Assembly (NCBI GenBank): GCA_038867615.1
Contig: JAWBYA010000010.1
Span: forward strand, 1-41,246
Length of the DNA: 41,246 nt
Direction of reading: 5' to 3'
Origin: Sulfolobales archaeon
Lineage (GTDB): Archaea; Thermoproteota; Thermoprotei_A; Sulfolobales; AG1
Below are positions 1,155 to 41,105 of the stretch, one piece after another (the stretch's first letter is position 1; each line of letters starts with the position of its first letter). The position numbers and the translations under genes were made by a program. The notes beneath the pieces were generated by a model. It did not search any database. It was not told the DNA's origin and saw only the letters and a program-made list of their open reading frames with translations.

Positions 1155-1664
1155 GTGCTCGGTGAAGAGGAGTTTATCTCAATTCTCTTTTATTTGGCTG
1201 GTGGTAGGATAAAGGGCTTGACGAGGATTCATAAGGTTGTGTTTCTAGTTGAAAAGATCCTGGGAATCAATGTTTTCAGGTTTGAGCCATGGAAGTTCGG
1301 CCCGTGGTCACGAGAGCTTGAAGAATCGCTTAAGAACTTAGAGAAGAAGGGGTTGCTGAGAATATATACTGAGGCTCCCGACATCGCCAGCAAACTTCTT
1401 GGTGAGGCTCCTGTAAAAGTTTGCAAAGCTTCTGCAGAACTCATTGCCGCTGGTGAAGAGGCGTATAAAAAGCTAGCAGATACCGATCCTATTAAAGCCT
1501 TGTACCTGAAAAAACTTGTTCTATCAGCTCTAAGCGTGCCTCTAACATACCTACTAGCATATATCTACTCAAGGTATCCAGAAATGATTATAAAAAGCAC
1601 TATACGAGACAAAGTTGAAGAGTGGAGGAATGTCTATGGACTTAGACTTAGCAAGCAAAGCTGA
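1155..1664 (+). CDS. Panacea/SocA (DUF4065)-like antitoxin-family protein
   Basis: TRIHKVVFL, FEPWKFGPWSREL and LLAYIYSRYPEM motifs. Confidence 0.65.
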   Translation: MLGEEEFISILFYLAGGRIKGLTRIHKVVFLVEKILGINVFRFEPWKFGPWSRELEESLKNLEKKGLLRIYTEAPDIASKLLGEAPVKVCKASAELIAAGEEAYKKLADTDPIKALYLKKLVLSALSVPLTYLLAYIYSRYPEMIIKSTIRDKVEEWRNVYGLRLSKQS

Positions 1665-2610
1665 AGAAGAGAGATCTCAAGCATCTGAAGCAGTGTCGCC
1701 ATTTAGTGAACTACTTAGTGAAATAGATGAGGAAGCTAAGAATGTTGAGAAAGTTCTTGGATGCCAGCTCATAGTCTTAGCGTTCCACGATTCTGCAGGT
1801 ATTGAGAGAAATGTTGTTGACGATTTTGAGTTTTACGTAATGGAAAGGAACTTAAATACTGAGTCAGATGTGTGTATATTGCTTCATACATTAGGAGGAG
1901 ATGCTGATGCAGCATATCATCTAGGCATAAGAATGCAGAACCTAACTAACCAGCAACTAATTATGGTTGTACCAAGGCTAGCAAAATCCGCAGGGACGCT
2001 CTTGGCATGTTCTGGTAATAAAATATTAGCGACGCCAATTACAGAGCTGGGTCCTGTAGATCCACAAGTACAGTTGCCAGGCACAGGGCGCTACGTTTCA
2101 GCTAAGACCATTAGAGACTCTCTTAAACAGGCAATTGAGACAATCAAAGAGACGGGAACTTCAGAAGAGCAGATAGTGGGGGCGGTGTTTTCCGGCATAC
2201 CTATAGCGGAAATGGGGCACTATGAAAGTCTTCTAAACCATGTGAAGAGCCTCTTAGAAGATATCTTAAGCAGAAGAATGAAGAAAGACAGAAAAGAGGT
2301 TTCAGAAATAGCGGTAAAGCTAACAAAAGGCTATGTATACCATGGCAAGGCTATACACGTAGAAGAGGCTAAAAAGGTAGGGCTCGAAATCGAGATTCTC
2401 ACTGGTGATAAATTGAAGGCTGTATACAATATATATCAAACGTTGAAGAGGCTTTTCGATGCCTTAAACGAACAGTTAGAGCCATTAATGTACGTCGCAA
2501 AGATTCCACTCCCAGTAAGACCGTACAAAATACAGCTTGGACTTATATATATGCCGTCCATAGAGGCTGGCTCGCCCGAGCTCTCCATATCTTCAAAACA
2601 AAGGGATTAA
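1636..2610 (+). CDS. SDH-family Clp-fold serine protease
   Basis: LHTLGGDADAA, AKSAGTLLA (catalytic Ser), ELGPVDPQ (Asp), HGKAI (His); GGAGG before ATG 1636; overlaps the upstream gene. Confidence 0.88.
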   Translation: MDLDLASKAEEERSQASEAVSPFSELLSEIDEEAKNVEKVLGCQLIVLAFHDSAGIERNVVDDFEFYVMERNLNTESDVCILLHTLGGDADAAYHLGIRMQNLTNQQLIMVVPRLAKSAGTLLACSGNKILATPITELGPVDPQVQLPGTGRYVSAKTIRDSLKQAIETIKETGTSEEQIVGAVFSGIPIAEMGHYESLLNHVKSLLEDILSRRMKKDRKEVSEIAVKLTKGYVYHGKAIHVEEAKKVGLEIEILTGDKLKAVYNIYQTLKRLFDALNEQLEPLMYVAKIPLPVRPYKIQLGLIYMPSIEAGSPELSISSKQRD

Positions 2611-7385: not shown

Positions 7386-7679
7386 ATGGGCTCGGAGCAC
7401 GAGGCAGCCCTGATCTTCATAAGGAGGAGACCCGACTACATGGCTGTGATCGAATGCATAGGCGAGGATGGGGCTACATGGGCGGAGGTGATTAGATGCA
7501 TGCTATCCAGGGGAGCAGTCTCAAGCATAGGGGGTGCGAGGCACAGGATAGCCCAGCTGGAGAGATACGGCGTGGTGGAGAGACATATATTCGGGAGAAA
7601 CGTTTTCCTAACCCTCAGCAGGGGCTTTCTAAGAACATGGAGGAGATCTAGTCAAGGGCATCGAGGGAGGAGACCCTGA
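7386..7679 (+). CDS. Winged-helix DNA-binding protein
   Basis: ATWAEVI...ARHRIAQLERYGVVER...FLTLS pattern; GGGGA before ATG 7386. Confidence 0.6.
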   Translation: MGSEHEAALIFIRRRPDYMAVIECIGEDGATWAEVIRCMLSRGAVSSIGGARHRIAQLERYGVVERHIFGRNVFLTLSRGFLRTWRRSSQGHRGRRP

Positions 7680-10482
7680 CAGGGATCCATGTGGTGTATC
7701 CCCTAGGCCTGCACTCAACAGAGCCGTTGGAAACCCTTGCAGAGCCTTCGGAGCAGATTCTGTCGAAGAGCTCAAGATCCCTCTGCGATTCGAAGGAAGC
7801 CCTGTACCTCCTCCCATCAACGGCTGTGAAGACCCTCTCACCAGCAGATCCAAGAAATGCCTGCACCGCTTTCCCCCTCTTCACAGGCTCGCCGGCGCTG
7901 AATATCCTCACCCTGCCCCTGTCTATCGAAGCAATCCCATAGATCTCCTCAAGCCTTTTGAAGCACCTACCCCACGTCCATGAATGGATCTCTGCGAAAT
8001 CCCTTGTGCTCTCCTTAACCCAGTTTCTAGAAACCTGGTCTGGGTGTGTCTCTACCTCGCTGCAGCTCTCAATTTCTATGGCAACTGCTTTCGAGTATAT
8101 AGGCCTCCAGGTAGATCTATCTACTGGGATGGCAACGAGATCGGGCCTCGACGGTAGACTGGGATCCTGCCTAGCCGGGGAGACAACATATCCCCTCCCA
8201 GCATACTTGATCAGAACCCTCCTGGCAAGCCTATAGCCATCATCGCTCGGAGCCACCCTCCTGAGATCCTTGAAGAGCCCCCTAACATATCTAGCAACCC
8301 TTCTATTCCCATCCCTCTGGATCTCTATAGACCCCCTCCCAGCCAGGGTGTTCAGGGCTTTCTCAAGCTCCTCCCTCCTAGCCCCGAGCCTGGCAGCTAG
8401 ATCTCCTATCCCGAGGCTCTTCTCCCTGTAGAGTGTGTATAGGGCCATGAACTCCAATGGCTTGATAGGGTCTATGTATTTGAGCACGGGGTTTAGAAGC
8501 ACCCTGAGATCCTCCTTAGCAGGCTCTCCAGGATCGTATTGCATGGTATATATCTCCCTCCTCCTCTCCTCATGCACAACATGGTCTAGGCTGACAACAA
8601 CTGGGGGAGGCTGCTGCTCCCCAGGCCTCGCTGTGAGCTTCACAACAGCCCTCCCGATGGTAAGCCCTGTCAAAGCCTTTGCAAGGGATTCCGCGAAGCC
8701 GGCGTCCATCGTTGAGAGCCTCTTAACATCCCCTCCCCCAACCTGGAAGGCTATCTTCACAGCGCAGTTGCTCATAACGCTCTGGAGAAGCCTCCCAGGT
8801 ATCTGGTCTGTATGCTGGTGCGCAACTATGAGGTGCAAACCATATTTCCTTGCCTCGGAGAGGATTGTATCTATTATGGGCAGGTCTGAGACGAAGTGGA
8901 ACTCGTCTATCACGAGGAAGACAGGTGTCCTCTCAACCCCCATCCTAGCCCTTGCAAGGACCTCGAACCATATTTTCATGACTATCGTTGATGCTATCAG
9001 CCTGGCCATGGCCTCGCCGAGATCTGCCTTCGGCACTGCGAAAATGGCTATGGATCCCGGTGATAGCATCTTCCCAAGCTCGATGGTTGTCCTGCTCGTA
9101 AGCCTTGCCAGGAGCCTGTCATGGGCATATGGCTCGAGCCTAGACAAAGCCGATATGAAGGTCTGATCCTGCATCCTCCTCAGAGCCTCCAGCTGGGCAT
9201 CCCATTCCGGGTCATCAACCTCTAGATCTAGCTCCCCCCTGTACAGGGCTAGGATTGCTCTGTAGAGCATCGAGAGCGTCGGGCTATCTGTCCTGCTGTA
9301 GAAAGCCCTTAGAAGGACCTGGAGCAGGTACTTGACGTTGACAGCCGTCTCCATGAGCCTCAGAACCTCCCTGAAGATCTCTATGAGGATGTCGATGGCG
9401 ACCGTCACAGCGAAATCCCTATCAACATGCCTCGGGAGATCCAGCGGGTTGAGTCCGAAGGGGCTTCTGAACGGGTGTAGATAGATCGACTCTGGGATCT
9501 CCTCCGCAAGCTCCTTGGACATATCGCCATGGGGATCTATAACTATTATCGCCGACCCCCCGGCTCTTCTGAGCATGTGGACGAGAAGCTTTAGAAGGCT
9601 TGTCTTCCCACTCCCAGTCTGGCCTATGATATAGACGTGCCTATAGAGATCCTCTACCGATAGCCTGTACTCCCTGCCATCGTCTAGAACACCTATTCTG
9701 AAACTCCTCTCCCCAGCCCTGTTGGGGGCTAGCATTGGCAGTGGGTATCCCCTGACAAAGCCTATTCTGTGTATGCTTGGGTCTGGAAAGCTCATCGAGG
9801 ATCTATAGCCCTGCTCGTCACTCACAAGCCTCCTCCTATCCCCGAAAAGCCTCTCCCAAAGCCCTATCCCCCTAGGCACAAGGATCTCCTCGAGATCCCC
9901 TGCCCTTCTAACCCTCCTAACGCTCCAGGAAAGCTCGACAGAGGATCCCGACTCCACAATCTCCACAGCTCTTTTCAGAGCATCTCTATCCCCTGCGAGG
10001 ATCCAGAGGCATGCTAGCAGAGCCTTCCCAGCCCTGCTGAGCATCTCCCTAGCCTCCATCCTCATATCCTGCCTCCCATATCTCAGGGCCCTCCTGGCTA
10101 GAGAGCCTGCCCTGGATCTGAATATAGCTGATAGCCCCGGATCCCTTGAGAACGATATGCATATAGCAGCCCTGCCCGGGAGATAACCAGCTATCCCCGG
10201 GAGGTCTGAGAGGGAGAAGCTAGACCACCAGAAGTCCCTAGATCTCTTCAGCCTAGCCTCGGCAACATAGACCTCTCCCCCGAAAACCTTTAGAATATCG
10301 TTTGGAGATGCTATGGAGACTCCGAAGAACCTTGAGAGGGTTTCGGGGCTAACGCTGCTCCTGATGAAAACCCTCAGCCCGCCATCTGTGTTTGCTATGC
10401 AGTATGTGAATCCGAGGCCCAGCACATCGACAGGGGGTTTAGAGCCTATCCTAGGGACTATCTCGGCCCAGAACAAGCCCAT
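7648..10482 (-). CDS. virD4: VirD4/TraG-like (HerA/FtsK superfamily) coupling ATPase with C-terminal wHTH and PD-(D/E)xK-like domain
   Basis: RHVYIIGQTGSGKT Walker A, VIDPHGD, VIDEFH Walker B, EARKYGL...AHQ; C-terminal RPDLVA...AIEIES. Confidence 0.85.
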   Translation of the reverse strand: MGLFWAEIVPRIGSKPPVDVLGLGFTYCIANTDGGLRVFIRSSVSPETLSRFFGVSIASPNDILKVFGGEVYVAEARLKRSRDFWWSSFSLSDLPGIAGYLPGRAAICISFSRDPGLSAIFRSRAGSLARRALRYGRQDMRMEAREMLSRAGKALLACLWILAGDRDALKRAVEIVESGSSVELSWSVRRVRRAGDLEEILVPRGIGLWERLFGDRRRLVSDEQGYRSSMSFPDPSIHRIGFVRGYPLPMLAPNRAGERSFRIGVLDDGREYRLSVEDLYRHVYIIGQTGSGKTSLLKLLVHMLRRAGGSAIIVIDPHGDMSKELAEEIPESIYLHPFRSPFGLNPLDLPRHVDRDFAVTVAIDILIEIFREVLRLMETAVNVKYLLQVLLRAFYSRTDSPTLSMLYRAILALYRGELDLEVDDPEWDAQLEALRRMQDQTFISALSRLEPYAHDRLLARLTSRTTIELGKMLSPGSIAIFAVPKADLGEAMARLIASTIVMKIWFEVLARARMGVERTPVFLVIDEFHFVSDLPIIDTILSEARKYGLHLIVAHQHTDQIPGRLLQSVMSNCAVKIAFQVGGGDVKRLSTMDAGFAESLAKALTGLTIGRAVVKLTARPGEQQPPPVVVSLDHVVHEERRREIYTMQYDPGEPAKEDLRVLLNPVLKYIDPIKPLEFMALYTLYREKSLGIGDLAARLGARREELEKALNTLAGRGSIEIQRDGNRRVARYVRGLFKDLRRVAPSDDGYRLARRVLIKYAGRGYVVSPARQDPSLPSRPDLVAIPVDRSTWRPIYSKAVAIEIESCSEVETHPDQVSRNWVKESTRDFAEIHSWTWGRCFKRLEEIYGIASIDRGRVRIFSAGEPVKRGKAVQAFLGSAGERVFTAVDGRRYRASFESQRDLELFDRICSEGSARVSNGSVECRPRGYTTWIPVRVSSLDALD

Positions 10483-10924: not shown

Positions 10925-12865
10925 ATGGCGAGTCAGGAGCAGAGGTTTTCTGTAGATCTTCTATACCTTCTTCACAGGAACTCCTATAGTAAGAGGAAGA
11001 TTAGGGAGGAGCTCTACAGAGTTGTTGAAGAGGTCTCGGGCGGCGCTAGGGTTGAGAGACTCTCAGATGCGATCAATGCTGTGGGGGATATATGCATAGA
11101 TCCGTCTAAGTGCCAAGAGCTTCGGAACCGCATAGTACATGTCTTGAAGAACCTAGGCGTAGATGCTATAAAGCAGCTGGATGAGATTGACAAGTTTAGA
11201 AGAGGTAGCGTTGAGGGGGGCAATGTGCTTGCGATGGTACATATGCTTGAGCCAGGCTATCCCAGGAGGCTGAGGCATGTAGATCCCCCAGCCCCAATCA
11301 TATTTGCTAGGACTCAGCATAGAGGTGGTGCGCCTCTAGATAATGCCAATTATATAAGGTGGATGCTCAGCGCAAGACCCCTAATAGCTGTGGTGGGCAC
11401 CAGGGATCCTTCTGAGGGTGGGTGTGAGGCTGCGAGGGAGATTGCTAAGTACATGGCTGGGCATGGCTTCTCAATGGTAACGGGGCTTGCTAATGGGATT
11501 GATGCCTGTGCTGCGGAGGGCTATCTAGAGAGGCTTCTAAAGTACAAACCTATAAGGTTCAAACCTGAACAACAAAAATATGGACAGGGCTCGGTGCTCA
11601 TAGGTGTTAGACCATATCTAGAGCCCTTCCCAGACTCGCTGCCACAGATGGCTAGGCAGGTTATAGATAGGTTTAGAAACGAGGGTATCCCCAACTGGAT
11701 CGTAATTTCTGAGAACGCCTCGATATACAATGAGGGTGGGTGGGTTAAGTCGCAGCTTTGCCTCAGGAACAGACTGATCTCCTCGCTAGCGGATGCCATA
11801 GTAGTGGTTGAGGCGAGGGCTGGGGAGGATGACGAGCTGGACATATGCGGTTCCACATCTATGGTTGAGCTGGGGCTTAGGAGAGGTAAGAGTGTGTATA
11901 TATGGAGGACAAAATCCAGGGACGAGGAGATCCTGAGGGGCTACAAGCTATATCTAGAGAACGGGGCTGTCGAATTCAGCGACTTCGAGGAGCTATACTG
12001 GTTACTCCTGAATAACAATGCTATAGCATATAAAATAGGAGATCAATATGTCATACCATACACACTCCCCCTGAGTAGTAGGAGGAAGATAGGGTTCAGA
12101 GTTATATGGGAGCAGAATCCTAAGGAGTATAATATACCTCGAAGGCTATTATGGCGATGGGGGGTTTATCAAAGCCCTAGAAAGGCATCGGAACTGGTCA
12201 TCCCTTTATCTAAAGGCATTCTAAGGGCTCCGAAGCTGCGACAGATCAGCGGTGTGAAAGTATATGCCCCGGGCATCTATGTACCTCGTTCTAAACCTTC
12301 TGTAACCGGGTATCAGTTAGAAACCATACTTAGTTCATTTGATCTGAGATCCCTAGTTGATTCCATTAAGGGGGATCCTAGTAATAGAATTGTTGATCCC
12401 GAGTCTATTGGGCTCGCCGGCTATCTATTAGCCCATGTGTTCCAGGTTGTGGAGCAGATTGAGGGGGAGGTGGATGCGATCACATATATCCCGTGCCATG
12501 AGAGTAACATGAGGATCACTCCTGACGGCTCCAAGATATGCCATGTTGAGGAGATTGCAAAAGCCCTTGCAGGATATGTTGGCAAACCTGTGATTAGGGT
12601 TGCGGAGAAGATAAAACACGAGGATCTAATTGGAATGGATAAGTGGAAGAGATGCGCCAAGGTTGAGGAGATGTATAAACCCGCTGATATGGTTGAGATC
12701 ATATATTCGCCCCCGGGGACTGAGGTAAATATCGACAAGATCAGGAGGCTGACCGTGATTGATGATGTGATAACTACAGGATGCACGCTCAAAGAGATTG
12801 TGAGGATTGCGAGGAGCAAGAACTATGTGGTTGCCTGGTGCTTAGTGGTGGCAATGACAGTCTAG
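10925..12865 (+). CDS. dprA: DprA/Smf domain fused to ComF-like phosphoribosyltransferase domain
   Basis: AVVGTR, VTGLANGIDACA, RNRLISSLADAIVVVEA (DprA); YIPCH...AKALA...VIDDVITTGCTL (PRTase). Confidence 0.88.
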   Translation: MASQEQRFSVDLLYLLHRNSYSKRKIREELYRVVEEVSGGARVERLSDAINAVGDICIDPSKCQELRNRIVHVLKNLGVDAIKQLDEIDKFRRGSVEGGNVLAMVHMLEPGYPRRLRHVDPPAPIIFARTQHRGGAPLDNANYIRWMLSARPLIAVVGTRDPSEGGCEAAREIAKYMAGHGFSMVTGLANGIDACAAEGYLERLLKYKPIRFKPEQQKYGQGSVLIGVRPYLEPFPDSLPQMARQVIDRFRNEGIPNWIVISENASIYNEGGWVKSQLCLRNRLISSLADAIVVVEARAGEDDELDICGSTSMVELGLRRGKSVYIWRTKSRDEEILRGYKLYLENGAVEFSDFEELYWLLLNNNAIAYKIGDQYVIPYTLPLSSRRKIGFRVIWEQNPKEYNIPRRLLWRWGVYQSPRKASELVIPLSKGILRAPKLRQISGVKVYAPGIYVPRSKPSVTGYQLETILSSFDLRSLVDSIKGDPSNRIVDPESIGLAGYLLAHVFQVVEQIEGEVDAITYIPCHESNMRITPDGSKICHVEEIAKALAGYVGKPVIRVAEKIKHEDLIGMDKWKRCAKVEEMYKPADMVEIIYSPPGTEVNIDKIRRLTVIDDVITTGCTLKEIVRIARSKNYVVAWCLVVAMTV

Positions 12866-15445: not shown

Positions 15446-16177
15446 ATGGGGATAGCCTACACATCTGACAAGGTCTTCCCCTGGAGGGATCACTCTCCAA
15501 AGCCTGTCGAGGGTCTAGACGATGCCATGAGGGTTCTGGCGTTGATCGGGATAAACAGCTGGGATATCGGGAGGATGGTTGTTGCCGAGCTAAGGGCATG
15601 CGGCCTGGGAGTTGGAAGGGCGGAGGTTCTCGCCGCTGCTGTTCTCCTCGGAATGGTTGGGAAGGAGGATCTGTTTGAAAGGGGCCTGCTAAGGAGAACT
15701 GGTTTCGAGCATATGGGGGAGGGGCTTGTAACTACGAGGGAGTTCAACAACGCCCTCGAGATGCTGAGGCTATGCAGAGAAGCGATCAGAGCATCAAGCA
15801 CAGTTCTATGCCCGAGATGCCTTAGCCATAGGCTGAATAGATGGGGGTGCCTGAGGTATAGGTGCAAGGAGTGTGGAAGGGTGTTCAAGGCATCATCCCT
15901 CCCACCATTTGTGAGGGACAGGGGGTGGGCGATGCTATTCGCAAAAGCCCTCGTAATGGCCGAGGCTGAGAGGAAAAGGAGAAGGAGATCCGGGGGGCCC
16001 AGGGCAGGTGCAGAGATACCGGGGAGAGTCCTTGAGATGCTTGGCTCGAGGCCCGGTGTTAGGAGGGGGAGGCTCTCAACAAAGCAGATCTATAGATATA
16101 TGAGATACCTCAAAAAAGCTGTTCTGGTGAACAGGCTTGGCTTGGAAGCGATCCAGCTAACCCCCTGTAAGGGCTGA
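15446..16177 (+). CDS. Zinc-ribbon protein with C-terminal HTH-like segment, putative regulator
   Basis: CPRC-x13-CKECGRVF; LSTKQIYRYMRYL; TATA and GGTGGGG before ATG 15446. Confidence 0.6.
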   Translation: MGIAYTSDKVFPWRDHSPKPVEGLDDAMRVLALIGINSWDIGRMVVAELRACGLGVGRAEVLAAAVLLGMVGKEDLFERGLLRRTGFEHMGEGLVTTREFNNALEMLRLCREAIRASSTVLCPRCLSHRLNRWGCLRYRCKECGRVFKASSLPPFVRDRGWAMLFAKALVMAEAERKRRRRSGGPRAGAEIPGRVLEMLGSRPGVRRGRLSTKQIYRYMRYLKKAVLVNRLGLEAIQLTPCKG

Positions 16178-16657
16178 GACAATCGCTGGCCAGGCGGCGA
16201 ATATTATCGCCCCCACTATCCCCCCGCCAATCCACTTCTTAGCCCCCTCAACATCTCCAGTAGCATATTTGATCCCACCCACTATGAAGGCTGCTGCCAC
16301 AGCCACCAACAATCCCCAGTAGATCCAGCCTAGAAGCGTCATAACAGCCTGGGAAACCTTTGGAGGAGGCTGTGGGGTAACTGTTATCTGGGCCTCTGCC
16401 CTCGCAATCAGGGCTAGCGATAGGGCTGTTGCCAGGGCCTTCAACCCCCTCTTCATAGCAGCATCTATGAGATCCCTCACAACCGAGGAAACAGATCTCC
16501 TCCTCTTGGAGGCCACATCTCTGAGCCAAAGCAGCTGCGATGGTTGGAGCCTTATGGAGAGCCTGGCAGGGTATCTCCTCCTCCTAACAACTATCCTCGG
16601 CAGGGGCTCCCCAGCTTCGTCGAGCACCAAATCGATCTCCCCGCCATCATCCTCCAT
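16157..16657 (-). CDS. RHH (CopG-like) domain fused to signal peptide and VirB2/TrbC-like conjugative pilin
   Basis: RLSIRLQPSQLLWLRDVASKRRRSVSSVVRDLIDAAM (RHH); KRGLKALATALSLALIARAEA|Q; two hydrophobic helices with IVGGIKYATGD...AKKWI. Confidence 0.75.
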   Translation of the reverse strand: MEDDGGEIDLVLDEAGEPLPRIVVRRRRYPARLSIRLQPSQLLWLRDVASKRRRSVSSVVRDLIDAAMKRGLKALATALSLALIARAEAQITVTPQPPPKVSQAVMTLLGWIYWGLLVAVAAAFIVGGIKYATGDVEGAKKWIGGGIVGAIIFAAWPAIVSALTGG

Positions 16658-16769
16658 AACGATCCCAACATCTATGCGCCCAGATTTAAAAGGCTGAGAG
16701 CAGGGGAGAATGATCTGTATAGAGCCTTTGAAGCCCCCACAGAGAGGAAACTGGAAACTAGATTGTTTG

Positions 16770-17477
16770 CTATTTGATTTCGAGGAAGCCCCAGTTCCAC
16801 AGCAGGCAGATCATCCACCATATGATTGGGATCGCTGCCCCTAGATATCGGTTCTTCTCAAGCGCCTCTAAAACCCCCATATCCCTGGGCACTAGGTTCA
16901 GGGTTACAAGGCTCCCATAGATATAGCCTACTAAGTCACTGACATATCCATCGAGCTCCCCGCTAGCCACAGCATCTATGTACTCGACTAGGAGAGGCTC
17001 GTAGATAGCTACTGCAAACCTGCCCTCGCCACCCCTTCTTCTATATAGTGTGTGGAAGCCGTCATGCGTGTAGGTGCCAACAACCCTGATAAGATCCATG
17101 CTCGGGACTATCCTGGGGTTTCTGCTGAATATCTCTTCGATGTTCTCTGGGTCGTAGTATGGCTTCAAACCCCTCGCCCTCAGATCATCCATAACCCTTC
17201 TAACAGCCTGGACCTCCTCAAGGCTCCACGGCCCCCTACCATCTATAGTTGGTATTACCGCTGCCCACTCGAAGAACTCCACCTGCGGTATGAACCACCA
17301 AGGCCACGTATACGGCATATCAGGGAGATACCTCTTGGTCAGCCTTATAGCCTCTGCCTCGAGGGCTACCTCCCACTCCCTCCCGCCGAGATCAATGGCT
17401 CTCCGGGTCTCTCTCCTGATCTCAACGATCCTACTCTCTATCTCCTCCCTACCCCTCTTCCTCCTAAAGAATATCAC
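16770..17477 (-). CDS. Hypothetical protein with C-terminal TM helix
   Basis: GTG start after GGGGTG; coupled to upstream small genes. Confidence 0.7.
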   Translation of the reverse strand: MIFFRRKRGREEIESRIVEIRRETRRAIDLGGREWEVALEAEAIRLTKRYLPDMPYTWPWWFIPQVEFFEWAAVIPTIDGRGPWSLEEVQAVRRVMDDLRARGLKPYYDPENIEEIFSRNPRIVPSMDLIRVVGTYTHDGFHTLYRRRGGEGRFAVAIYEPLLVEYIDAVASGELDGYVSDLVGYIYGSLVTLNLVPRDMGVLEALEKNRYLGAAIPIIWWMICLLWNWGFLEIK

Positions 17478-18020: not shown

Positions 18021-19877
18021 CTATATAGCTACAACAGGCTTTGTTGAGAATGCCTCTAGCTCCTCCGGCGATGCGTAGATCCTCATCGCTAGCCTGTGCC
18101 TCCCAGCCCTGAGAATAGCCTCACCCGTCTCCGCGTTTACAAGCCCCTCGATCTCTGTGTCGTCTAGCCTGTATATGCTCCTCATAACATCCCACGCGGT
18201 TCTCTCCTGCCTCATGAGAATTGTTGTTGCGCTCTGCTCCAGCAGCGCCCTCCCCTGCGGGCTTGAGGCTATGTCCTGCGGCCTCTGGGATATATATAGA
18301 AGCACTAGGCCCCTCTTCCTACCCCTCCTAGCTATGTTTTCAAGGAGATCCATTATGCTTGGGGTCTCGTTGAAGAGCCATGCCTCGTCCACGAGCATCA
18401 ATGCCCTCCCAGGTGTCTTGGCTATCAATGTGTTGTAGATATATGATGCTATCAACGCGGATGCGAGGATCTTGAGCCTCTTGCTCCTAACACCCTTCAG
18501 CCCGAAGAAAACACTCCCACCCAGATCCGGGGGTTCTCCCTCGAAGAGGTTTATATCGGGTGGAGCTATAGCCCCCTCCAGATATCTGGCCAGCTCCGGC
18601 CTCCTCCTCCCGAGCATCTCGACGAAGCCCCTCATATCCCCCGCATCGTCGCTGTGCATGAATAGCTCGTGCCTCAGAGATCCTGAGAGCTCTCTGGGCA
18701 CGCTGTATATGTCGCATAATATGTCGCTAGCCTGCGAAACATCTAGAAACCCCCTCTGGATCATCTTTATAGGGTCTAGACCAAGCCTCGTTCCATCGGA
18801 TATGATCACAGGCTCTCCTCCGAGGAGCCTGAGGGCCTTGGGATCCACATACTCGTTCTCAGGGTCTATCCCGACGACGAGGGATCCTGGGAATAGGTCT
18901 CTGAACCTCCTCACAAAGACCTTCGCCGTCATGCTCTTCCCAGAACCGCTCTCCCCGAGGATCACTATGTTGTAGTTATGCCTAGCATATGGGTTGATGA
19001 CAACGGGGGATCCGGAGCTCGACATCCCCAGGAATATCCCTGGACTCTCGACGAGCTCCTCAGATGCCAGTGGATATAGCAGCCTAGCCCCCCAGCTATC
19101 CATGTAGATCCTATCGACGCAGGCTTCGAAGAAGAGGGGCGATGATCTGCATGGCCTGAGCTGGTATAGAGGCAATTGCATGAGCCTGGGGGCCCTGGCC
19201 CTCACACCATAGCTGGCGAGCCATGTAACAAGGCTCCTCTCCCTATCCCCGAGGGCCTCTCTATCTCTTGCCACAACCGTGAATAGTATCACTGCTCTGA
19301 GTAGCTCCCTGCCAGCGCCGAGGCTCCTTGAGATCTCATCGAGATCCTCAAGCCATCTAGCCCCCTCTATAGATCCCCTAGCAGCTGCCCCAGCCTTCCT
19401 AGCCCTGGCCCTCTGCACAATCCCTACGGCCCTGTGCCTTGGGATAACATCCCATAGGAGTATGAACTCATCTGCGATGTCTAGGGATGCTGATGGGAGG
19501 GCCTCTGGGATCTCTGGGGGTAGCTCGTATACCATCAAAACCCTTGCAAGGCTTCCATCCTCTAGCACGACGTGGTCTGGCTTCTCAGCTACTGCCCTCG
19601 GCCTCAGAGCCTCCACATCCCCCTCGCCTATCTCCCTCGCGTTGAACAGCCCTAGATCCCCTCTAAGCCCCTCCGCCCTTAGGATGAATATCCTCCTCCT
19701 AACCTCTAGAGAGAATCCCGAGAAGCTCTCCACAGAAACAGAAGATCTAGCTATGATCGCCCCCCTAGGCACGAGGGATAGGAGGGATGAGAACTCCGAG
19801 AGGATCTGATCCCTCTCATCTGGGGATAGCACTGCGAAGGGGCTCCCACCAAGCTGGAACCACCTAGCCCTGGCCAT
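18021..19877 (-). CDS. virB4: VirB4/TrbE-like conjugative ATPase
   Basis: NYNIVILGESGSGKS, IDPENEY, LVDEAW, RRGRKRG...ISQ, GEAIL. Confidence 0.92.
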   Translation of the reverse strand: MARARWFQLGGSPFAVLSPDERDQILSEFSSLLSLVPRGAIIARSSVSVESFSGFSLEVRRRIFILRAEGLRGDLGLFNAREIGEGDVEALRPRAVAEKPDHVVLEDGSLARVLMVYELPPEIPEALPSASLDIADEFILLWDVIPRHRAVGIVQRARARKAGAAARGSIEGARWLEDLDEISRSLGAGRELLRAVILFTVVARDREALGDRERSLVTWLASYGVRARAPRLMQLPLYQLRPCRSSPLFFEACVDRIYMDSWGARLLYPLASEELVESPGIFLGMSSSGSPVVINPYARHNYNIVILGESGSGKSMTAKVFVRRFRDLFPGSLVVGIDPENEYVDPKALRLLGGEPVIISDGTRLGLDPIKMIQRGFLDVSQASDILCDIYSVPRELSGSLRHELFMHSDDAGDMRGFVEMLGRRRPELARYLEGAIAPPDINLFEGEPPDLGGSVFFGLKGVRSKRLKILASALIASYIYNTLIAKTPGRALMLVDEAWLFNETPSIMDLLENIARRGRKRGLVLLYISQRPQDIASSPQGRALLEQSATTILMRQERTAWDVMRSIYRLDDTEIEGLVNAETGEAILRAGRHRLAMRIYASPEELEAFSTKPVVAI

Positions 19878-27848: not shown

Positions 27849-28421
27849 ATGGCTATGAAAAGGGGAAGCCTCAAACTCCTAGATGTCCCTCCATACCAAG
27901 CCCTTTTAGATGCTGTTTCGAGGTGTTGGAGGGATGTTCAGAGGGGCAGATACATGCTAAGGGATCTAGCCCTGGTTTCTATCCTTGTCTTCACGGGGTG
28001 CAGGATTGGAGAGGCTATGAGGATCTCCAAATCAGATCTCGATTTCAAGGGGAGGGCTGTTAGGATAAACCAGCTCAAGAAGAGAGAATCATTTACAAGG
28101 GTTGTTCCAGTCCCAAGCAACCTGTTTTGGGATATTGTCAGGGGCTACACGGAGAGGATAGCTGGTGAGAGGCTATTCAAGATCACCATCAGACATGGGA
28201 GGAACATAGTATATGGCTTCTCGGAGAGATATCTGGGGATGAGGATAAGGCCCCACGCTATTAGGCATAGCTATGCAATAGCGGTTCTAAAGACAACAAA
28301 GAACCTGGAGGCTGTTAGAAGGCTGTTGGGGCATAGGGACTACACAACGATAAAGACATATCTAGACATGACGCAGGAGGACCTCGAGGAGGAGCTTTCA
28401 AAGCTATTCAGAGGCTTGTAA
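27849..28421 (+). CDS. Small tyrosine recombinase (catalytic domain only)
   Basis: TGCRIGE, QLKK, HAIRHSYA, LLGH, TIKTY. Confidence 0.92.
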   Translation: MAMKRGSLKLLDVPPYQALLDAVSRCWRDVQRGRYMLRDLALVSILVFTGCRIGEAMRISKSDLDFKGRAVRINQLKKRESFTRVVPVPSNLFWDIVRGYTERIAGERLFKITIRHGRNIVYGFSERYLGMRIRPHAIRHSYAIAVLKTTKNLEAVRRLLGHRDYTTIKTYLDMTQEDLEEELSKLFRGL

Positions 28422-32693: not shown

Positions 32694-33581
32694 TCAGGGT
32701 GAGGCCCGCCCCATCATCTGATCCTCTATCCATTTGACCTTTAGTTGGGATCCCATGTATTTCTGATACATTTCGATGAGGATATCTATGTCGTCTCTCA
32801 GCTCTTTGCTCAGGTTCTTGGATGCATTATATAGATCTGTTATCATCGGCTCCAGATGCTTCGCATAGAACCACATGGCATCAGCATGCTCCTCAAATTT
32901 AGGTAGCGTTTTAACACCACCCTTTTTGTTGGGCATAACTATTATCGGTATGGGTGTCTTCGCTATTCTCCTTGCATAGTCCTCAGCCTCACGATCCCTA
33001 AGATTCCTAGCCCTATGCATGATGCTTGCTAGCCTCGAACCTATCTTGCTATATGCATAAGCCCTAGCAGATAGTGATGAATCAAACTTACCCAGAAACT
33101 TGTATTTCCTCCACTCCCTCCCCCTCTTAATCGTGATAACTGTAACTGAATAATCAAAAGAGTCTCTATGATCTACCATATCCATATAGCTGTGATCCAT
33201 GCTCACAACAAGATCATGAGTCCTCGTAGCGATATCAACCATAGAGGCGATATCACCCTCTGAAGCCTCTCCATAGCTTCTAATCTCTGTGATGAAGATG
33301 TTGCCACGGACATCCAAAACCCTGAGATCCCAAGCATCTATTATGATGACAGAGCCTCTCTCGATCTTTTTGTAGATCTCGTCAAAGGGTCTTATCGAGG
33401 TGGGGTCTCCGCGGGGGTTGTTGATAAGCATTACAGGGCTCGAAAAAGATCTATTATCATCAACAATGATGCCATACAAACAATACATCTTCCGATTATA
33501 TCTCGTGATCTTGACTCTAGAGTCAAATATGTAAACCTTACCCCTGCTCATCATAGTGAACCTCACCCACGATCCATACAA
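32694..33581 (-). CDS. Hypothetical protein, last gene of the replication operon
   Basis: 295 aa ORF overlapping the primase stop. Confidence 0.7.
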   Translation of the reverse strand: MYGSWVRFTMMSRGKVYIFDSRVKITRYNRKMYCLYGIIVDDNRSFSSPVMLINNPRGDPTSIRPFDEIYKKIERGSVIIIDAWDLRVLDVRGNIFITEIRSYGEASEGDIASMVDIATRTHDLVVSMDHSYMDMVDHRDSFDYSVTVITIKRGREWRKYKFLGKFDSSLSARAYAYSKIGSRLASIMHRARNLRDREAEDYARRIAKTPIPIIVMPNKKGGVKTLPKFEEHADAMWFYAKHLEPMITDLYNASKNLSKELRDDIDILIEMYQKYMGSQLKVKWIEDQMMGRASP

Positions 33582-34705
33582 AACCTCTCGAACATTTCAG
33601 GGTTTTTCTCCCTGTATGTCCTGCATATTATGTCGAGGATCTCCCTATCCATTTTTCCAATGCTCTTTGGGAGGATGACCGCTGGCTCTCCATCTTCATC
33701 AACCCTCTCCGCCTTTCTAGCTAGCCTTGCAAGGTCGTTCCTAACCCATCCCTCCCCGATCTTATCACACCTCTTATAGTTTCTACAGGAGTTTTCGAGG
33801 AAGGTTCTGGCGAGCTCTAGGCAGGCTTCTACATCCAGTTTCCTGACGTTGATGCAGTAGGGGTTGAGAGCGGAGAGGATGAATCGTTTCCTTCCATCGG
33901 GAAGCCCGATGCTAATGATAGCCTCTATCCATGTGATAGTCCCAGGGCCCCTTCTAACCCTGATCCTCGGCCTGGGCATTTCGATCCTGACTACTGTGAT
34001 CTCTATCTTCAGGGGGTCGAGAGGCTCTAGGCGATCCCATGTGAACTCATTTCTAAGCTTGATCCTGGGCTCCAGAAACAATGTCTCCCTTCTAACACCT
34101 CTTTTGTTGTAATAGCTAGTCGGGATCCTGTGGAGTGAGTTGAACCTAGTCGGGCTCATATCAACCATTCCCCTGTACCCCTCCGGCACGTGAGAGGCTA
34201 CGTGGCTGTGAAGGGGCTGATAATAGTCATAACCTATCCTCCGTTTCAATGGGGTGAAGACGTGGCAGCCCTTTCTACCTGATCTCACAATGGCTGCGTC
34301 GCACCCATATAAGTCCTTTAAGATCCTCGCGAGCCTGTATGCTCCCTGGCAAGCAACGCTCCAGTCATCCTCGCAGTCAAAGTCTATGAAGATGCGGTCG
34401 TAGAGCATGACATCCTCGGCGGGCTTCAAAGCAACATCCCCCCAGAAGCCGTTCCCCATGAAAAGATTAGCCTCTCTGAAGAACCTCCCACCCCTGAGAT
34501 ATCTCCTCCAGATAAGCTCCTCAAAGCCTAGGAAGCTGGCCTGCTCCCTTATGAATTTGCATCCCCACCTGGGCATCCCCTGCGTCTCTTGACAGACATC
34601 CATATCGCCTATATGCAGAGCCCACTCCCTCGCAGAAGATAAATCTATCCTCGTGGGCCCGGCAAACCAGACCTCGACAAACTCTAGAAAATCATCGTAG
34701 GGCAA
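33563..34705 (-). CDS. Archaeo-eukaryotic primase (PriS-like) fused to PriX-like domain
   Basis: IFIDFD, SGRKGCH, VD...RIP; C-terminal WIEAII...DGRKRFIL...YCINVRK...KIGEGWV. Confidence 0.85.
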   Translation of the reverse strand: MPYDDFLEFVEVWFAGPTRIDLSSAREWALHIGDMDVCQETQGMPRWGCKFIREQASFLGFEELIWRRYLRGGRFFREANLFMGNGFWGDVALKPAEDVMLYDRIFIDFDCEDDWSVACQGAYRLARILKDLYGCDAAIVRSGRKGCHVFTPLKRRIGYDYYQPLHSHVASHVPEGYRGMVDMSPTRFNSLHRIPTSYYNKRGVRRETLFLEPRIKLRNEFTWDRLEPLDPLKIEITVVRIEMPRPRIRVRRGPGTITWIEAIISIGLPDGRKRFILSALNPYCINVRKLDVEACLELARTFLENSCRNYKRCDKIGEGWVRNDLARLARKAERVDEDGEPAVILPKSIGKMDREILDIICRTYREKNPEMFERFCMDRG

Positions 34706-39700: not shown

Positions 39701-40981
39701 CTAGCCCAGCACCGATAGCCCAGCCCTGTCATATATATCTCTAAGCTCTTTAACGCCTATCGCTAGGTAGTGCCTAGCTAGTATCTGGAACTCCCTGGGG
39801 GGAACCCTGCCCTGGAGGAGATCTATTATCTGTCCTGGAACTCCCTTGATGCTTAGATAGCTTGCGAAGAAAGCCCTGAGATCGTATAGCCTGAATCTCT
39901 TGCCAAGGGTCTTCTCCATAGCATCGTATATAGATGCCCTCAGGGCAGAGTCCTTGAATGGGAATAGAAGGGATCTCCACTCAGAGACATCCCTAAGCAG
40001 GTTCCTAACCCTGGGCTCAACACTTTTAACGAATTCCTCTCTATATGGGAGGTAATGCTTTTCGAGATAGCTTTTCAGCCCCTCTGAGAAGAAGGCTATA
40101 TAGGATCTCTTTGTGTTGCCTATCCTCATTATCCTCAGCATCCTCTCACCAAGATCGAGATCCCCTAGCCTTGCATTCAAAACCTCCCCAGGCCTGAGCC
40201 CCGTCTCTGCTAGGAGTGCGTAGTAAGCCTTTGCAGGGATCCAATCTATAGCCTTTGCAACAGCTCTAACCGTTTCCAGGGTCAGGGGCTCGGAGGCCAT
40301 TTCATGCCCGCTTCTAGGGATTTTGAAGGCTGAATATAGATTTGGATCCCTCAGCACGTGCTTTATGAAAAGCTTTAGAGTTGATGCGACGTGCCTGGCG
40401 ACGTTGGGGCTCTCATCCCCAAGCTCTTCTATATATTCCCCGAGCCTCTCTGGGGATAGCTCCCAACCGAGGTCGTTGAGAGCCTTTCTAAGATATCTAT
40501 TCCTATCATTCCTCGTCTTCGGAGCCCTTGACATCAGGATCTTATCGAAGGCATCCAAATGATCCTTGGTGATTGCCACGCTATATCCCCTCCTACCGAG
40601 GAGACCCAACACCCTCTGAATAGCCACGCCAGACAGCTGTGGATATCTATTGACAAGGGCCTCCAAACCCATCAAAAGCTGGTCAAGCATGGAGAGAGCC
40701 TCAGAAAGATCCCTAGGCTCCCAGGAAAGCCTCTGGATAGACCGATCCAAAGCCTGTGAACCGCTTACAAGCGATGCGAACTCATCCAGGGAGAGCATTC
40801 TGAGCATCCTCTCAAGCAGGGCATCAGATACCCTCGCCCTCCTATTCCTAACCTTATTAGCATATGTAGGATCTATACCCAGGTCAGAGCTCCTAACACC
40901 CCTCTCCCAGAGATAGTCAAAGATCCTATACCTAGCATCGTCGCCAACACCCCTGAGATCGACAAGGTTCGGATCTACCAA
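39701..40981 (-). CDS. int: pNOB8-type tyrosine integrase
   Basis: ETGLRPGE, YDLRAFFASY (YxxR), LLQGR, ARHY; N-terminal HTH; adjacent to att; TTG 40981 after GGTGG. Confidence 0.93.
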   Translation of the reverse strand: MVDPNLVDLRGVGDDARYRIFDYLWERGVRSSDLGIDPTYANKVRNRRARVSDALLERMLRMLSLDEFASLVSGSQALDRSIQRLSWEPRDLSEALSMLDQLLMGLEALVNRYPQLSGVAIQRVLGLLGRRGYSVAITKDHLDAFDKILMSRAPKTRNDRNRYLRKALNDLGWELSPERLGEYIEELGDESPNVARHVASTLKLFIKHVLRDPNLYSAFKIPRSGHEMASEPLTLETVRAVAKAIDWIPAKAYYALLAETGLRPGEVLNARLGDLDLGERMLRIMRIGNTKRSYIAFFSEGLKSYLEKHYLPYREEFVKSVEPRVRNLLRDVSEWRSLLFPFKDSALRASIYDAMEKTLGKRFRLYDLRAFFASYLSIKGVPGQIIDLLQGRVPPREFQILARHYLAIGVKELRDIYDRAGLSVLG

Positions 40982-41021
40982 ACAAACCACCAGAAATAAT
41001 ATACAAGCAGGTTTATAAGCC

Positions 41022-41078
41022 GATATGAAAGCCGATATGAAAATTTGATATGAATGCTGATATGAAAACCGATATGGA
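41022..41078 (+). repeat. Five tandem GATATG(A/G)A repeats, 12-13 bp period, between int and att
   Basis: Copies at 41022, 41034, 41047, 41059, 41071. Confidence 0.75.
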
Positions 41079-41105
41079 ATCTGGATCAAAGGGATCGGAT
41101 CTTTA

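Follow-up and report, generated by a model that had tools for sequence, protein, structure and literature searches.

A pilin precursor with a probable ribbon-helix-helix domain joined to its N-terminus on an archaeal conjugative element

On the 41,246-nucleotide contig JAWBYA010000010.1 of a Sulfolobales archaeon (assembly GCA_038867615.1; this whole stretch is called the window below), a gene at 16157..16657 of the minus strand joins a basic domain that is probably of the ribbon-helix-helix (RHH) type to a signal-peptide-like stretch and to what appears to be a small two-helix pilin of a type IV secretion system (T4SS). The fusion is a genuine single in-frame gene, which is kept by selection. 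A preliminary description of this DNA, made from the letters alone, had described one open reading frame (ORF) with an RHH-like N-terminal part, a signal-like stretch, an AEA↓Q site and a two-helix pilin, and this order is seen as claimed, in frame and within 166 amino acids (aa). The reading favoured here, to which we give a probability of about one half, is that of a bipartite precursor, transcribed from its own TATA promoter, whose RHH-like domain would dimerise and whose cutting by signal peptidase would leave a DNA-binding fragment.

The fused gene, its conservation and its promoter

The ORF contains 166 codons and a stop codon, starts with ATG and has no in-frame start further upstream; its call as one unit is backed by six DNA copies without a stop or indel and by RNA contigs with no gap at the junction. 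By composition, the first 19 residues form an acidic tail with eight D/E and no K/R (16601..16657, minus strand). The basic beta-alpha-alpha (RHH-like) core follows as aa 28-70 (16448..16576, minus strand), delimited by AlphaFold2 (AF2) models, predicted dimer contacts, an Arc-like PHROG match, ESM-Atlas neighbours, a weak in-register hhalign alignment and charge, and the stretch of aa 20-71 has a pI of 12 with 15 K/R. The putative signal peptide (aa 68-89; 16391..16456, minus strand) reads M68-KRGLK-ALATALSLALIA-RAEA89 and is followed by Q90-ITVTPQPPP, with which the predicted mature pilin begins (aa 90-166, Q90-G166; 16160..16390, minus strand), the latter comprising two hydrophobic helices and the loop GDVEGAKKW. 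No linker separates the basic domain from the signal peptide, which overlaps the end of helix 2, and the internal Met noted in the preliminary description is indeed codon 68, with its ATG at 16456. Hydropathy reveals three hydrophobic segments, a short h-region-like one at 74-85 and two longer ones at 108-130 and 142-163. The predicted cut after AEA89 would yield an 89-aa N-terminal fragment and a 77-aa pilin. A terminator-like hairpin with a T-run, identified by consensus match only, lies 23 nt 3' of the stop codon (16109..16134, minus strand).

Besides the source genome (G000), another genome of the genus (G094) contains the 166-codon frame in two copies, and it is also found at three loci of metagenomes, while a fourth such locus is truncated by its contig end. 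A protein of 166 aa with 98% identity, P0001, is found in two protein libraries. The six DNA copies come from different assemblies, share 95-97% nucleotide identity and have neither stops nor indels, and they can be regarded as independent sequences because 35 sites within the ORF differ among them. In addition, contigs of three metatranscriptome runs cross the junction at 16456 with no gaps (X15 at 16056-16513, X16 at 15900-16652 and X17 at 16161-16505), and no indel is listed inside the ORF in any of them. Since six copies and three RNA libraries keep the frame without an indel, the fusion is not an assembly error. The explanation that two separate genes were joined artificially, by an error of assembly or sequencing that took out a stop or changed the frame, was a concern of the preliminary description; it found no support in either the assemblies or the RNA contigs and has practically no probability left.

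The N-terminal extension is as well conserved as the pilin part among the six copies. Its only replacements in the DNA copies are D4G, G6R and K51R, of which K51R is the sole one in the nearly invariant core of aa 20-67. The acidic tail thus holds two of the three non-synonymous differences, or four of five when two RNA-contig variants at 16627 and 16644, read as V11M and G5D, are included. The surroundings of the gene are less uniform: elements with 95-97% nucleotide identity in the pilin ORF share only 60-74% protein identity in the adjacent gene of 238 aa, and variants of the element cease to be homologous precisely at the TATA box in front of the pilin ORF, where the upstream gene at loci L021 and L026 ends. 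From these sequence comparisons the structure around the pilin gene is mosaic or cassette-like, and given such a difference between cassette and neighbour, the fusion would have persisted through considerable divergence or else have been passed between elements as one piece.

Examination of the upstream region confirmed the TATA box reported earlier, CTTTTAAA, at 16685..16692 of the minus strand, that is 28-35 nt upstream of the first ATG. It is the sole match to CTTTTAAR in the 41-kb window with both strands scanned, and because at least one such match is expected by chance, only the position of the box is informative. The motif C(C/G)TTTTAA(A/G) and the 27 nt from it down to the ATG are kept in all six copies, while the DNA upstream of the box is unrelated at L021 and L026. 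Measured against the usual crenarchaeal distance from TATA box to start codon, this spacing predicts a leaderless or near-leaderless mRNA. The transcript indeed seems to begin near the first ATG, with contigs of X15 reaching 16637 and those of X16 reaching 16652, i.e., 5-20 nt inside it, and with a promoter gap devoid of contigs at 16638-16882 (X15) and 16653-16764 (X16); such an end is suggestive only, since assembled contigs cannot prove an RNA end or its strand. Translation from the internal Met alone, which the preliminary description had named as an outcome that would speak against a fusion, is thus not what is suggested. No TATA box (CTTTTAAR) is found near 16456, and the 15 nt before the internal ATG, which read CTCATAGATGCTGCT, hold no purine-rich run, in agreement with the earlier remark that a motif of Shine-Dalgarno (SD) type is missing there. 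A search for operators around the promoter revealed no conserved repeat, and two imperfect inverted repeats near it were not counted, as L021 and L026 have other DNA in place of the stretch with the upstream arms.

The two halves of the precursor and their relatives

Several lines of prediction suggest that the N-terminal domain is probably a ribbon-helix-helix. Residues 32-69 match the PHROG family 'Arc-like repressor' phrog_3431 with an E-value of 7.9e-4, and a second Arc-like family, phrog_3180, is matched at 0.18. Among the ESM-Atlas neighbours of aa 1-72, 12 of 30 clusters carry RHH_1, RHH_5, Arc or DUF6290, at similarities of 0.93-0.95, figures of a language model that are not calibrated for parts of proteins. 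When aa 1-72 were modelled alone by AF2 from the single sequence, a strand at 32-36, a helix at 39-51 and a helix at 56-70 were obtained, with the loop RRRS between the helices and a hairpin at 7-25 preceding them (predicted local distance difference test, pLDDT, 81.5; predicted template modelling score 0.63). This model has the RHH layout, in which a beta-strand, a helix, a turn and a second helix follow each other over some 40-45 residues. As a pair of identical chains, aa 1-72 scored 0.54 with ESMFold2 as compared to 0.00 for the best control, with runs agreeing in at least 93% of contacts and a partner pLDDT of at least 66, and the mark applied to such dimers is reached by 21 of 30 solved homo-pairs and by none of 23 single chains. 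Because RHH dimers are already among solved structures, passing this mark may show likeness only. The contacts concerned (34:34, 34:33/35, 36:32/33, 63:63, 60:60 and 41/44/45:64/68) are predicted to represent an antiparallel ribbon between subunits with packing of helix 2, which is the plan of an RHH dimer. What speaks for DNA binding is the outward position of R32, S34 and R36 on the strand, the basic arms and the pI of 12.

The C-terminal half has the features of a T4SS-type two-helix pilin with a putative signal peptidase I site, as the preliminary description had proposed on the basis of a VirB2/TrbC-like layout after a signal-like stretch, and this assignment draws on a weak Pfam match, an AF2 hairpin and a VirB4-like neighbour. 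The Pfam family T4SS_pilin (PF18895) matches aa 107-163 with an E-value of 6.6e-4 and 20.1 bits, under its cut-off of 26.6 bits; among aligned family members, 7 of 18 match PF18895 at E <= 0.01, all under the cut-off, and one matches TrbC/VirB2 (PF04956) at 0.0081. With the family alignment, AF2 predicts aa 101-163 as a helical hairpin with helices at 101-132, 136-154 and 156-163, with a break at 155 and block-mean pLDDT values of 86-96 over aa 101-160. Hence, by AF2 and hydropathy, the layout is that of a small two-helix protein with a short charged loop. When the pilin-family profile was searched against sequences of the Protein Data Bank (PDB), no solved CedA1, TedC or VirB2 chain appeared at E <= 1 and the matches were unrelated membrane hairpins at E >= 0.22. 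A Foldseek search of the pilin model against the PDB gave none at E <= 0.001; chains of the T-pilus ranked only 36th and 45th, with E-values of 6.9 and 7.8. The segment from Met68 to A89, in which n-, h- and c-regions and the A-x-A↓Q site are all present, aligns with the signal peptides of 20-30 aa of stand-alone relatives, and because its hydrophobic core measures only 12 residues, the h-region resembles that of a cleavable signal rather than an anchor. No second pilin homologue besides this ORF was found in G000.

Relatives of the protein were sought in several collections. A phmmer search of 1.84 billion representatives returned 21 matches, of which only P0001 is full-length, while the other 20, of 66-138 aa, align from residue 57 or later; a profile search of a library of 5.8 billion returned 18 matches, with the domain in P0001 only and the others having 106-150 aa. 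Among 201 genomes sampled from the order, 24 contain pilin relatives, and full-length matches are restricted to G000 and G094. The N-terminal part alone retrieved only the same-genus copies from these 201 genomes, the rest being scattered at E > 0.002 per genome, and no short stand-alone relative of aa 1-75 was found among proteins of 30-90 aa. No split pair of an RHH gene and a pilin gene was found either: a local RHH_1 hidden Markov model, run over all ORFs (35 aa or longer) within about 1.5 kb of the pilins at 29 loci, gave a best E-value of 0.72, and it also misses the N-domain of the fusion itself. Scans of viral contigs with the fusion protein and with P0002 yielded nothing useful. Thus, instead of being always split into two genes, an outcome considered in the preliminary description, the fusion is retained in same-genus and metagenome copies, and by these searches it is confined to one narrow Desulfurococcales lineage of conjugative elements. 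No report of an RHH-pilin fusion was found among the papers listed by full-text searches of the literature, whose relevance was judged by title or abstract.

Basic N-terminal extensions of 20-60 aa precede the hydrophobic core in the relatives P0003, P0016, P0017, P0023, P0026, P0029 and P0035, and those of P0023, P0026, P0029, P0035, P0016 and P0017 are probably helical. They are dissimilar to the N-terminal part of the fusion, as all matches from both searches except P0001 begin at residue 57 or beyond. Since many relatives have such basic extensions, a long cytoplasmic leader would be a trait of the family and only the folded domain would be unusual. The earlier view of an unusual pilin with an N-terminal domain hence stands in so far as no other relative found has this domain, but not with respect to the long basic leader, which is common to the family. 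A 213-aa ORF of genome G096 (locus L017, 1171-1812, plus strand) with an extension of 110 residues was considered as a second fusion and rejected; it is not a parallel case, because translation from the TTG codons at 1492 and 1501, both in frame, would yield an ordinary prepilin resembling P0012, and no PHROG family matches the extension. The pilin of this locus itself looks degenerate (W to R, altered loop). Another member of the family, P0031, is labelled as a hypothetical protein of Sulfolobus acidocaldarius.

Proposed fate of the precursor and competing explanations

According to the bipartite-precursor reading, the gene would have a TATA promoter of its own and the ATG at 16657 would be its start codon, so that the basic domain (aa ~28-70) would be made first, stay in the cytoplasm, fold RHH-like and dimerise. 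The hydrophobic core at 74-85 would then insert with the N-terminus in and the C-terminus out, such that the A-x-A↓Q site, at whose position the relatives with ordinary signal peptides are presumably cut, would face the outside, a topology which makes sense, with the basic domain being cytoplasmic and the cleavage site external. Signal peptidase I would cut after AEA89, giving the 77-aa pilin and the 89-aa RHH fragment in a one-to-one ratio, and the fragment with its short hydrophobic tail would either stay at the membrane or get released. It would most probably bind DNA, acting either as a built-in autorepressor, by which the amount of pilin made would be coupled to transfer-gene transcription, or as an anchor that brings element DNA to the transfer machine. 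A tentative elaboration, which we consider conceivable without expecting it, is that of a two-in-one 'polyprotein', in which each exported pilin would leave one half of a membrane-proximal RHH dimer, so that output would be counted and fed back on transfer-gene promoters, or in which the fragment would recruit element DNA to the transfer pore.

A number of results weigh against this reading. With Pfam, the N-terminal part has no match to RHH or any other family at E <= 10, and PF01402 (RHH_1) matches six other loci in G000 and not this ORF. A phmmer search of the N-terminal part against the PDB gave noise (best E 0.09, a carboxysome protein), Foldseek with the AF2 model of the N-domain found nothing at E <= 0.001 in the PDB and listed no RHH protein, and NCBIfam gave a single chance-level match. 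The hhalign alignment to a local RHH_1 alignment, built of distinct sequences among 30 local RHH_1 domains/loci, is in register (33-68 on 9-45) and weak, with a probability of 9%, a P of 0.0036 and one of 30 shuffles scoring higher. The whole-protein AF2 model draws aa 39-87 as one long helix, merging helices 1 and 2 with the signal peptide. Consequently, the RHH-like N-terminus of the preliminary description is upheld by PHROG, the Atlas, AF2 and the dimer model but not by Pfam RHH models or Foldseek, and the AlphaFold comparison of both halves that it had suggested returned beta-alpha-alpha for the N-terminal half and a helical hairpin for the pilin half, but not separate helices in the N-terminal half when the whole protein was modelled. 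On the side of transcription, X17 does cover the promoter gap at a low depth (7.7), the RNA evidence consists of assembled contigs and a raw-read run (X22) contributed no reads. One regulator per pilin would also be an odd stoichiometry for a repressor. Lastly, an antisense frame at 16467-16697 of the plus strand shares the wobble positions of the N-terminal codons and is equally conserved.

The main rival is an inert long leader: aa 1-67 would be an unusually long basic prepilin pro-region that aids or times insertion and is degraded after cleavage, with the RHH likeness being incidental and without a role at DNA. In its favour are the basic stretches of about 20-60 aa that precede the hydrophobic core in relatives, the negative results of Foldseek, of Pfam RHH models and of sequence comparison with the PDB, and the long leaders that are normal in F TraA, VirB2 and RP4 TrbC. 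However, the extensions of relatives show no similarity to the N-terminal part. For the latter, single-sequence modelling predicts with fair confidence a folded beta-alpha-alpha unit and a symmetric ribbon dimer, and it also matches Arc-like PHROGs and is conserved as well as the pilin. On balance we regard the inert leader as rather unlikely, though serious. Less probable still is that most pilin arises from the internal Met68 as a 99-aa prepilin, with the full-length product being minor or made only for its RHH part. In the alignment, stand-alone relatives such as P0002 (100 aa) start at precisely the position of Met68, and a cell requires many more pilin subunits than regulator molecules, but the surroundings of 16456 have neither a TATA box nor a purine-rich SD-like run in the preceding 15 nt, and RNA-library contigs extend to 16637-16652. 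Since no stop intervenes, a ribosome starting at 16657 must read into the pilin.

A further explanation takes codons 1-67 as untranslated, being either a 5' untranslated region (UTR) or the shadow of an antisense gene at 16467-16697, with the open frame being fortuitous. Among the six copies, codons 1-67 have 13 variable sites, ten of them synonymous and nine located at third codon positions (p 0.009 in a binomial test against one third), and codons 68-166 have 22, of which 18 are synonymous; as the antisense frame shares the wobble positions, this pattern implies coding in one of the two frames but does not distinguish between them, and the codon-position test was downgraded as proof of the sense frame. 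The same explanation can draw on the N-terminal part having no sequence relatives in the 1.84 billion representatives, among proteins of 30-90 aa or in the 201 genomes of the order. The sense frame is nevertheless favoured, because it runs into the pilin and its ATG is placed 28-35 nt past the conserved box, which is a leaderless distance from the only TATA box, and crenarchaeal mRNAs seldom have long 5' UTRs. The antisense ORF lacks a TATA box, runs into a non-homologous region and has its end altered at L021 and L026, whereas the sense product is predicted to fold (pLDDT 81.5, single sequence) and resembles RHH families. An untranslated origin of codons 1-67 is thus very unlikely. The antisense ORF itself (76 aa, Ser/Leu/Thr-rich by eye) was read as a shadow of the sense gene.

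The conjugative element and comparison with known systems

The window is largely an integrative/conjugative element, because it carries VirB4-like, coupling-protein-like, DprA-like, methyltransferase, integrase and primase-polymerase genes. The VirB4/TrbE/CedB-like ATPase (618 aa; 18021..19877, minus strand; AAA_10 33.8 bits against a cut-off of 27.5, DUF87 31.0 bits) is encoded 1.4 kb from the pilin gene. The type IV coupling-protein-like ATPase (944 aa; 7648..10482, minus strand) matches TrwB_AAD_bind, TraG-D_C and T4SS-DNA_transf with 46.9, 32.2 and 26.8 bits, all above cut-offs, and shows a weak MarR-type winged-helix match towards its C-terminus, at aa 673-728 (E ~1e-3, under the cut-off); if this match is real, a second T4SS component of the element would carry a fused DNA-binding module. 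Between the gene for this ATPase and a 691-aa ORF without a significant Pfam match lies the gene for a DprA-domain protein (DNA_processg_A, 68 bits; 646 aa; 10925-12865, plus strand), which is a candidate for handling single-stranded DNA on this conjugative element of an archaeon. By domain matches, two integrase-family genes (27849-28421, plus strand, and 39701-41089, minus strand) and a primase-polymerase gene with a PriX domain (33563-34705, minus strand) are present, along with a ClpP-like SDH-type serine protease/NfeD-like protein (1615-2610, plus strand) and a methyltransferase gene. The contig has no terminal overlap, and its G+C content is 0.51-0.56 in 2-kb windows from 6 to 20 kb as compared to 0.42-0.49 elsewhere.

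Two loci of relatives were annotated, of which that of G186 has the pilin with VirB11-like and coupling-protein-like genes and that of G183 has it with a VirB11-like gene. In these loci (L072 in G186 and L073 in G183), unfused pilins lie beside the VirB11-like (T2SSE) genes and a gene of 497-548 aa without a Pfam match. The G183 cluster may be chromosomal, because RuBisCO adjoins it; directly upstream of its pilin gene lies a gene whose product of 130 aa begins with a hydrophobic stretch and is not RHH. In four genomes, open frames of 540-576 aa with a weak pilin-like stretch lie about 4 kb from the pilin relative, resembling the pattern of CedA and CedA1 as described in PMC9905601.

Like the pilin half described here, CedA1 of Aeropyrum and Sulfolobales and TedC of Pyrobaculum are small crenarchaeal two-helix membrane hairpins encoded beside VirB4-like genes, a likeness of layout and context, as the profile search of the PDB found neither. 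The signal peptidase I site predicted for TedC, AVA↓QA, is comparable to AEA↓Q in the fusion pilin, whereas CedA1 is given as unprocessed, and in the passages of PMC9905601 that deal with them neither CedA1 nor TedC is described with an N-terminal folded domain such as that predicted for the fusion pilin. The element that carries the fusion pilin gene also encodes a coupling-protein-like ATPase, integrases and a primase-polymerase, whereas CedA1 and TedC belong to a domesticated chromosomal import system.

Bacterial pilins such as F TraA, Agrobacterium VirB2 and RP4 TrbC resemble the fusion in that a two-helix pilin follows a long leader with a hydrophobic core, and in the site for signal peptidase, which in the fusion is a putative one. 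Their leaders measure about 36-51 aa and are, to our knowledge, not folded domains, unlike the 89-aa leader with its predicted dimeric beta-alpha-alpha domain. The N-domain shares the beta-alpha-alpha order and lengths with RHH regulators such as Arc/Mnt, CopG and the conjugation accessory protein TraY, and likewise RHH-like are the polar/hydrophobic alternation of the strand R32-L-S-I-R-L37, S-x-S-S at the start of helix 2 and the basic arm before the strand. Unlike such regulators, it fails Pfam RHH models and its helix 2 runs straight into the signal peptide, for which reason it would be membrane-tethered at least transiently; the RHH proteins known to us are soluble or fused to soluble domains. 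In polyproteins processed by signal peptidase, a nucleic-acid-binding protein can, for example, be left on an internal signal sequence and later be freed by an intramembrane protease. The fusion would resemble these in having a cytoplasmic nucleic-acid-binding module upstream of an internal signal sequence, whose cleavage would part the module from a membrane protein; this is an analogy of mechanism only and implies no homology.

Conjugation in archaea is poorly understood, and according to a 2023 cryo-EM study (PMC9905601), neither a relaxase nor a pilus protein had been recognised on conjugative plasmids of archaea. The element described here has a recognisable pilin together with VirB4-like and coupling-protein-like genes, and this pilin is physically joined to what is probably a DNA-binding module. 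The fusion is a new domain arrangement of an already known kind of protein and is taxonomically narrow. If the module is inert, it shows how much cargo a prepilin leader tolerates. If it is active, it would represent a rare useful protein domain inside a cleaved export leader and a simple testable link of pilus production to gene control or DNA recruitment. Should the released fragment recruit DNA, it would fill the DNA-recruitment step of archaeal conjugation, for which no relaxase is known according to PMC9905601.

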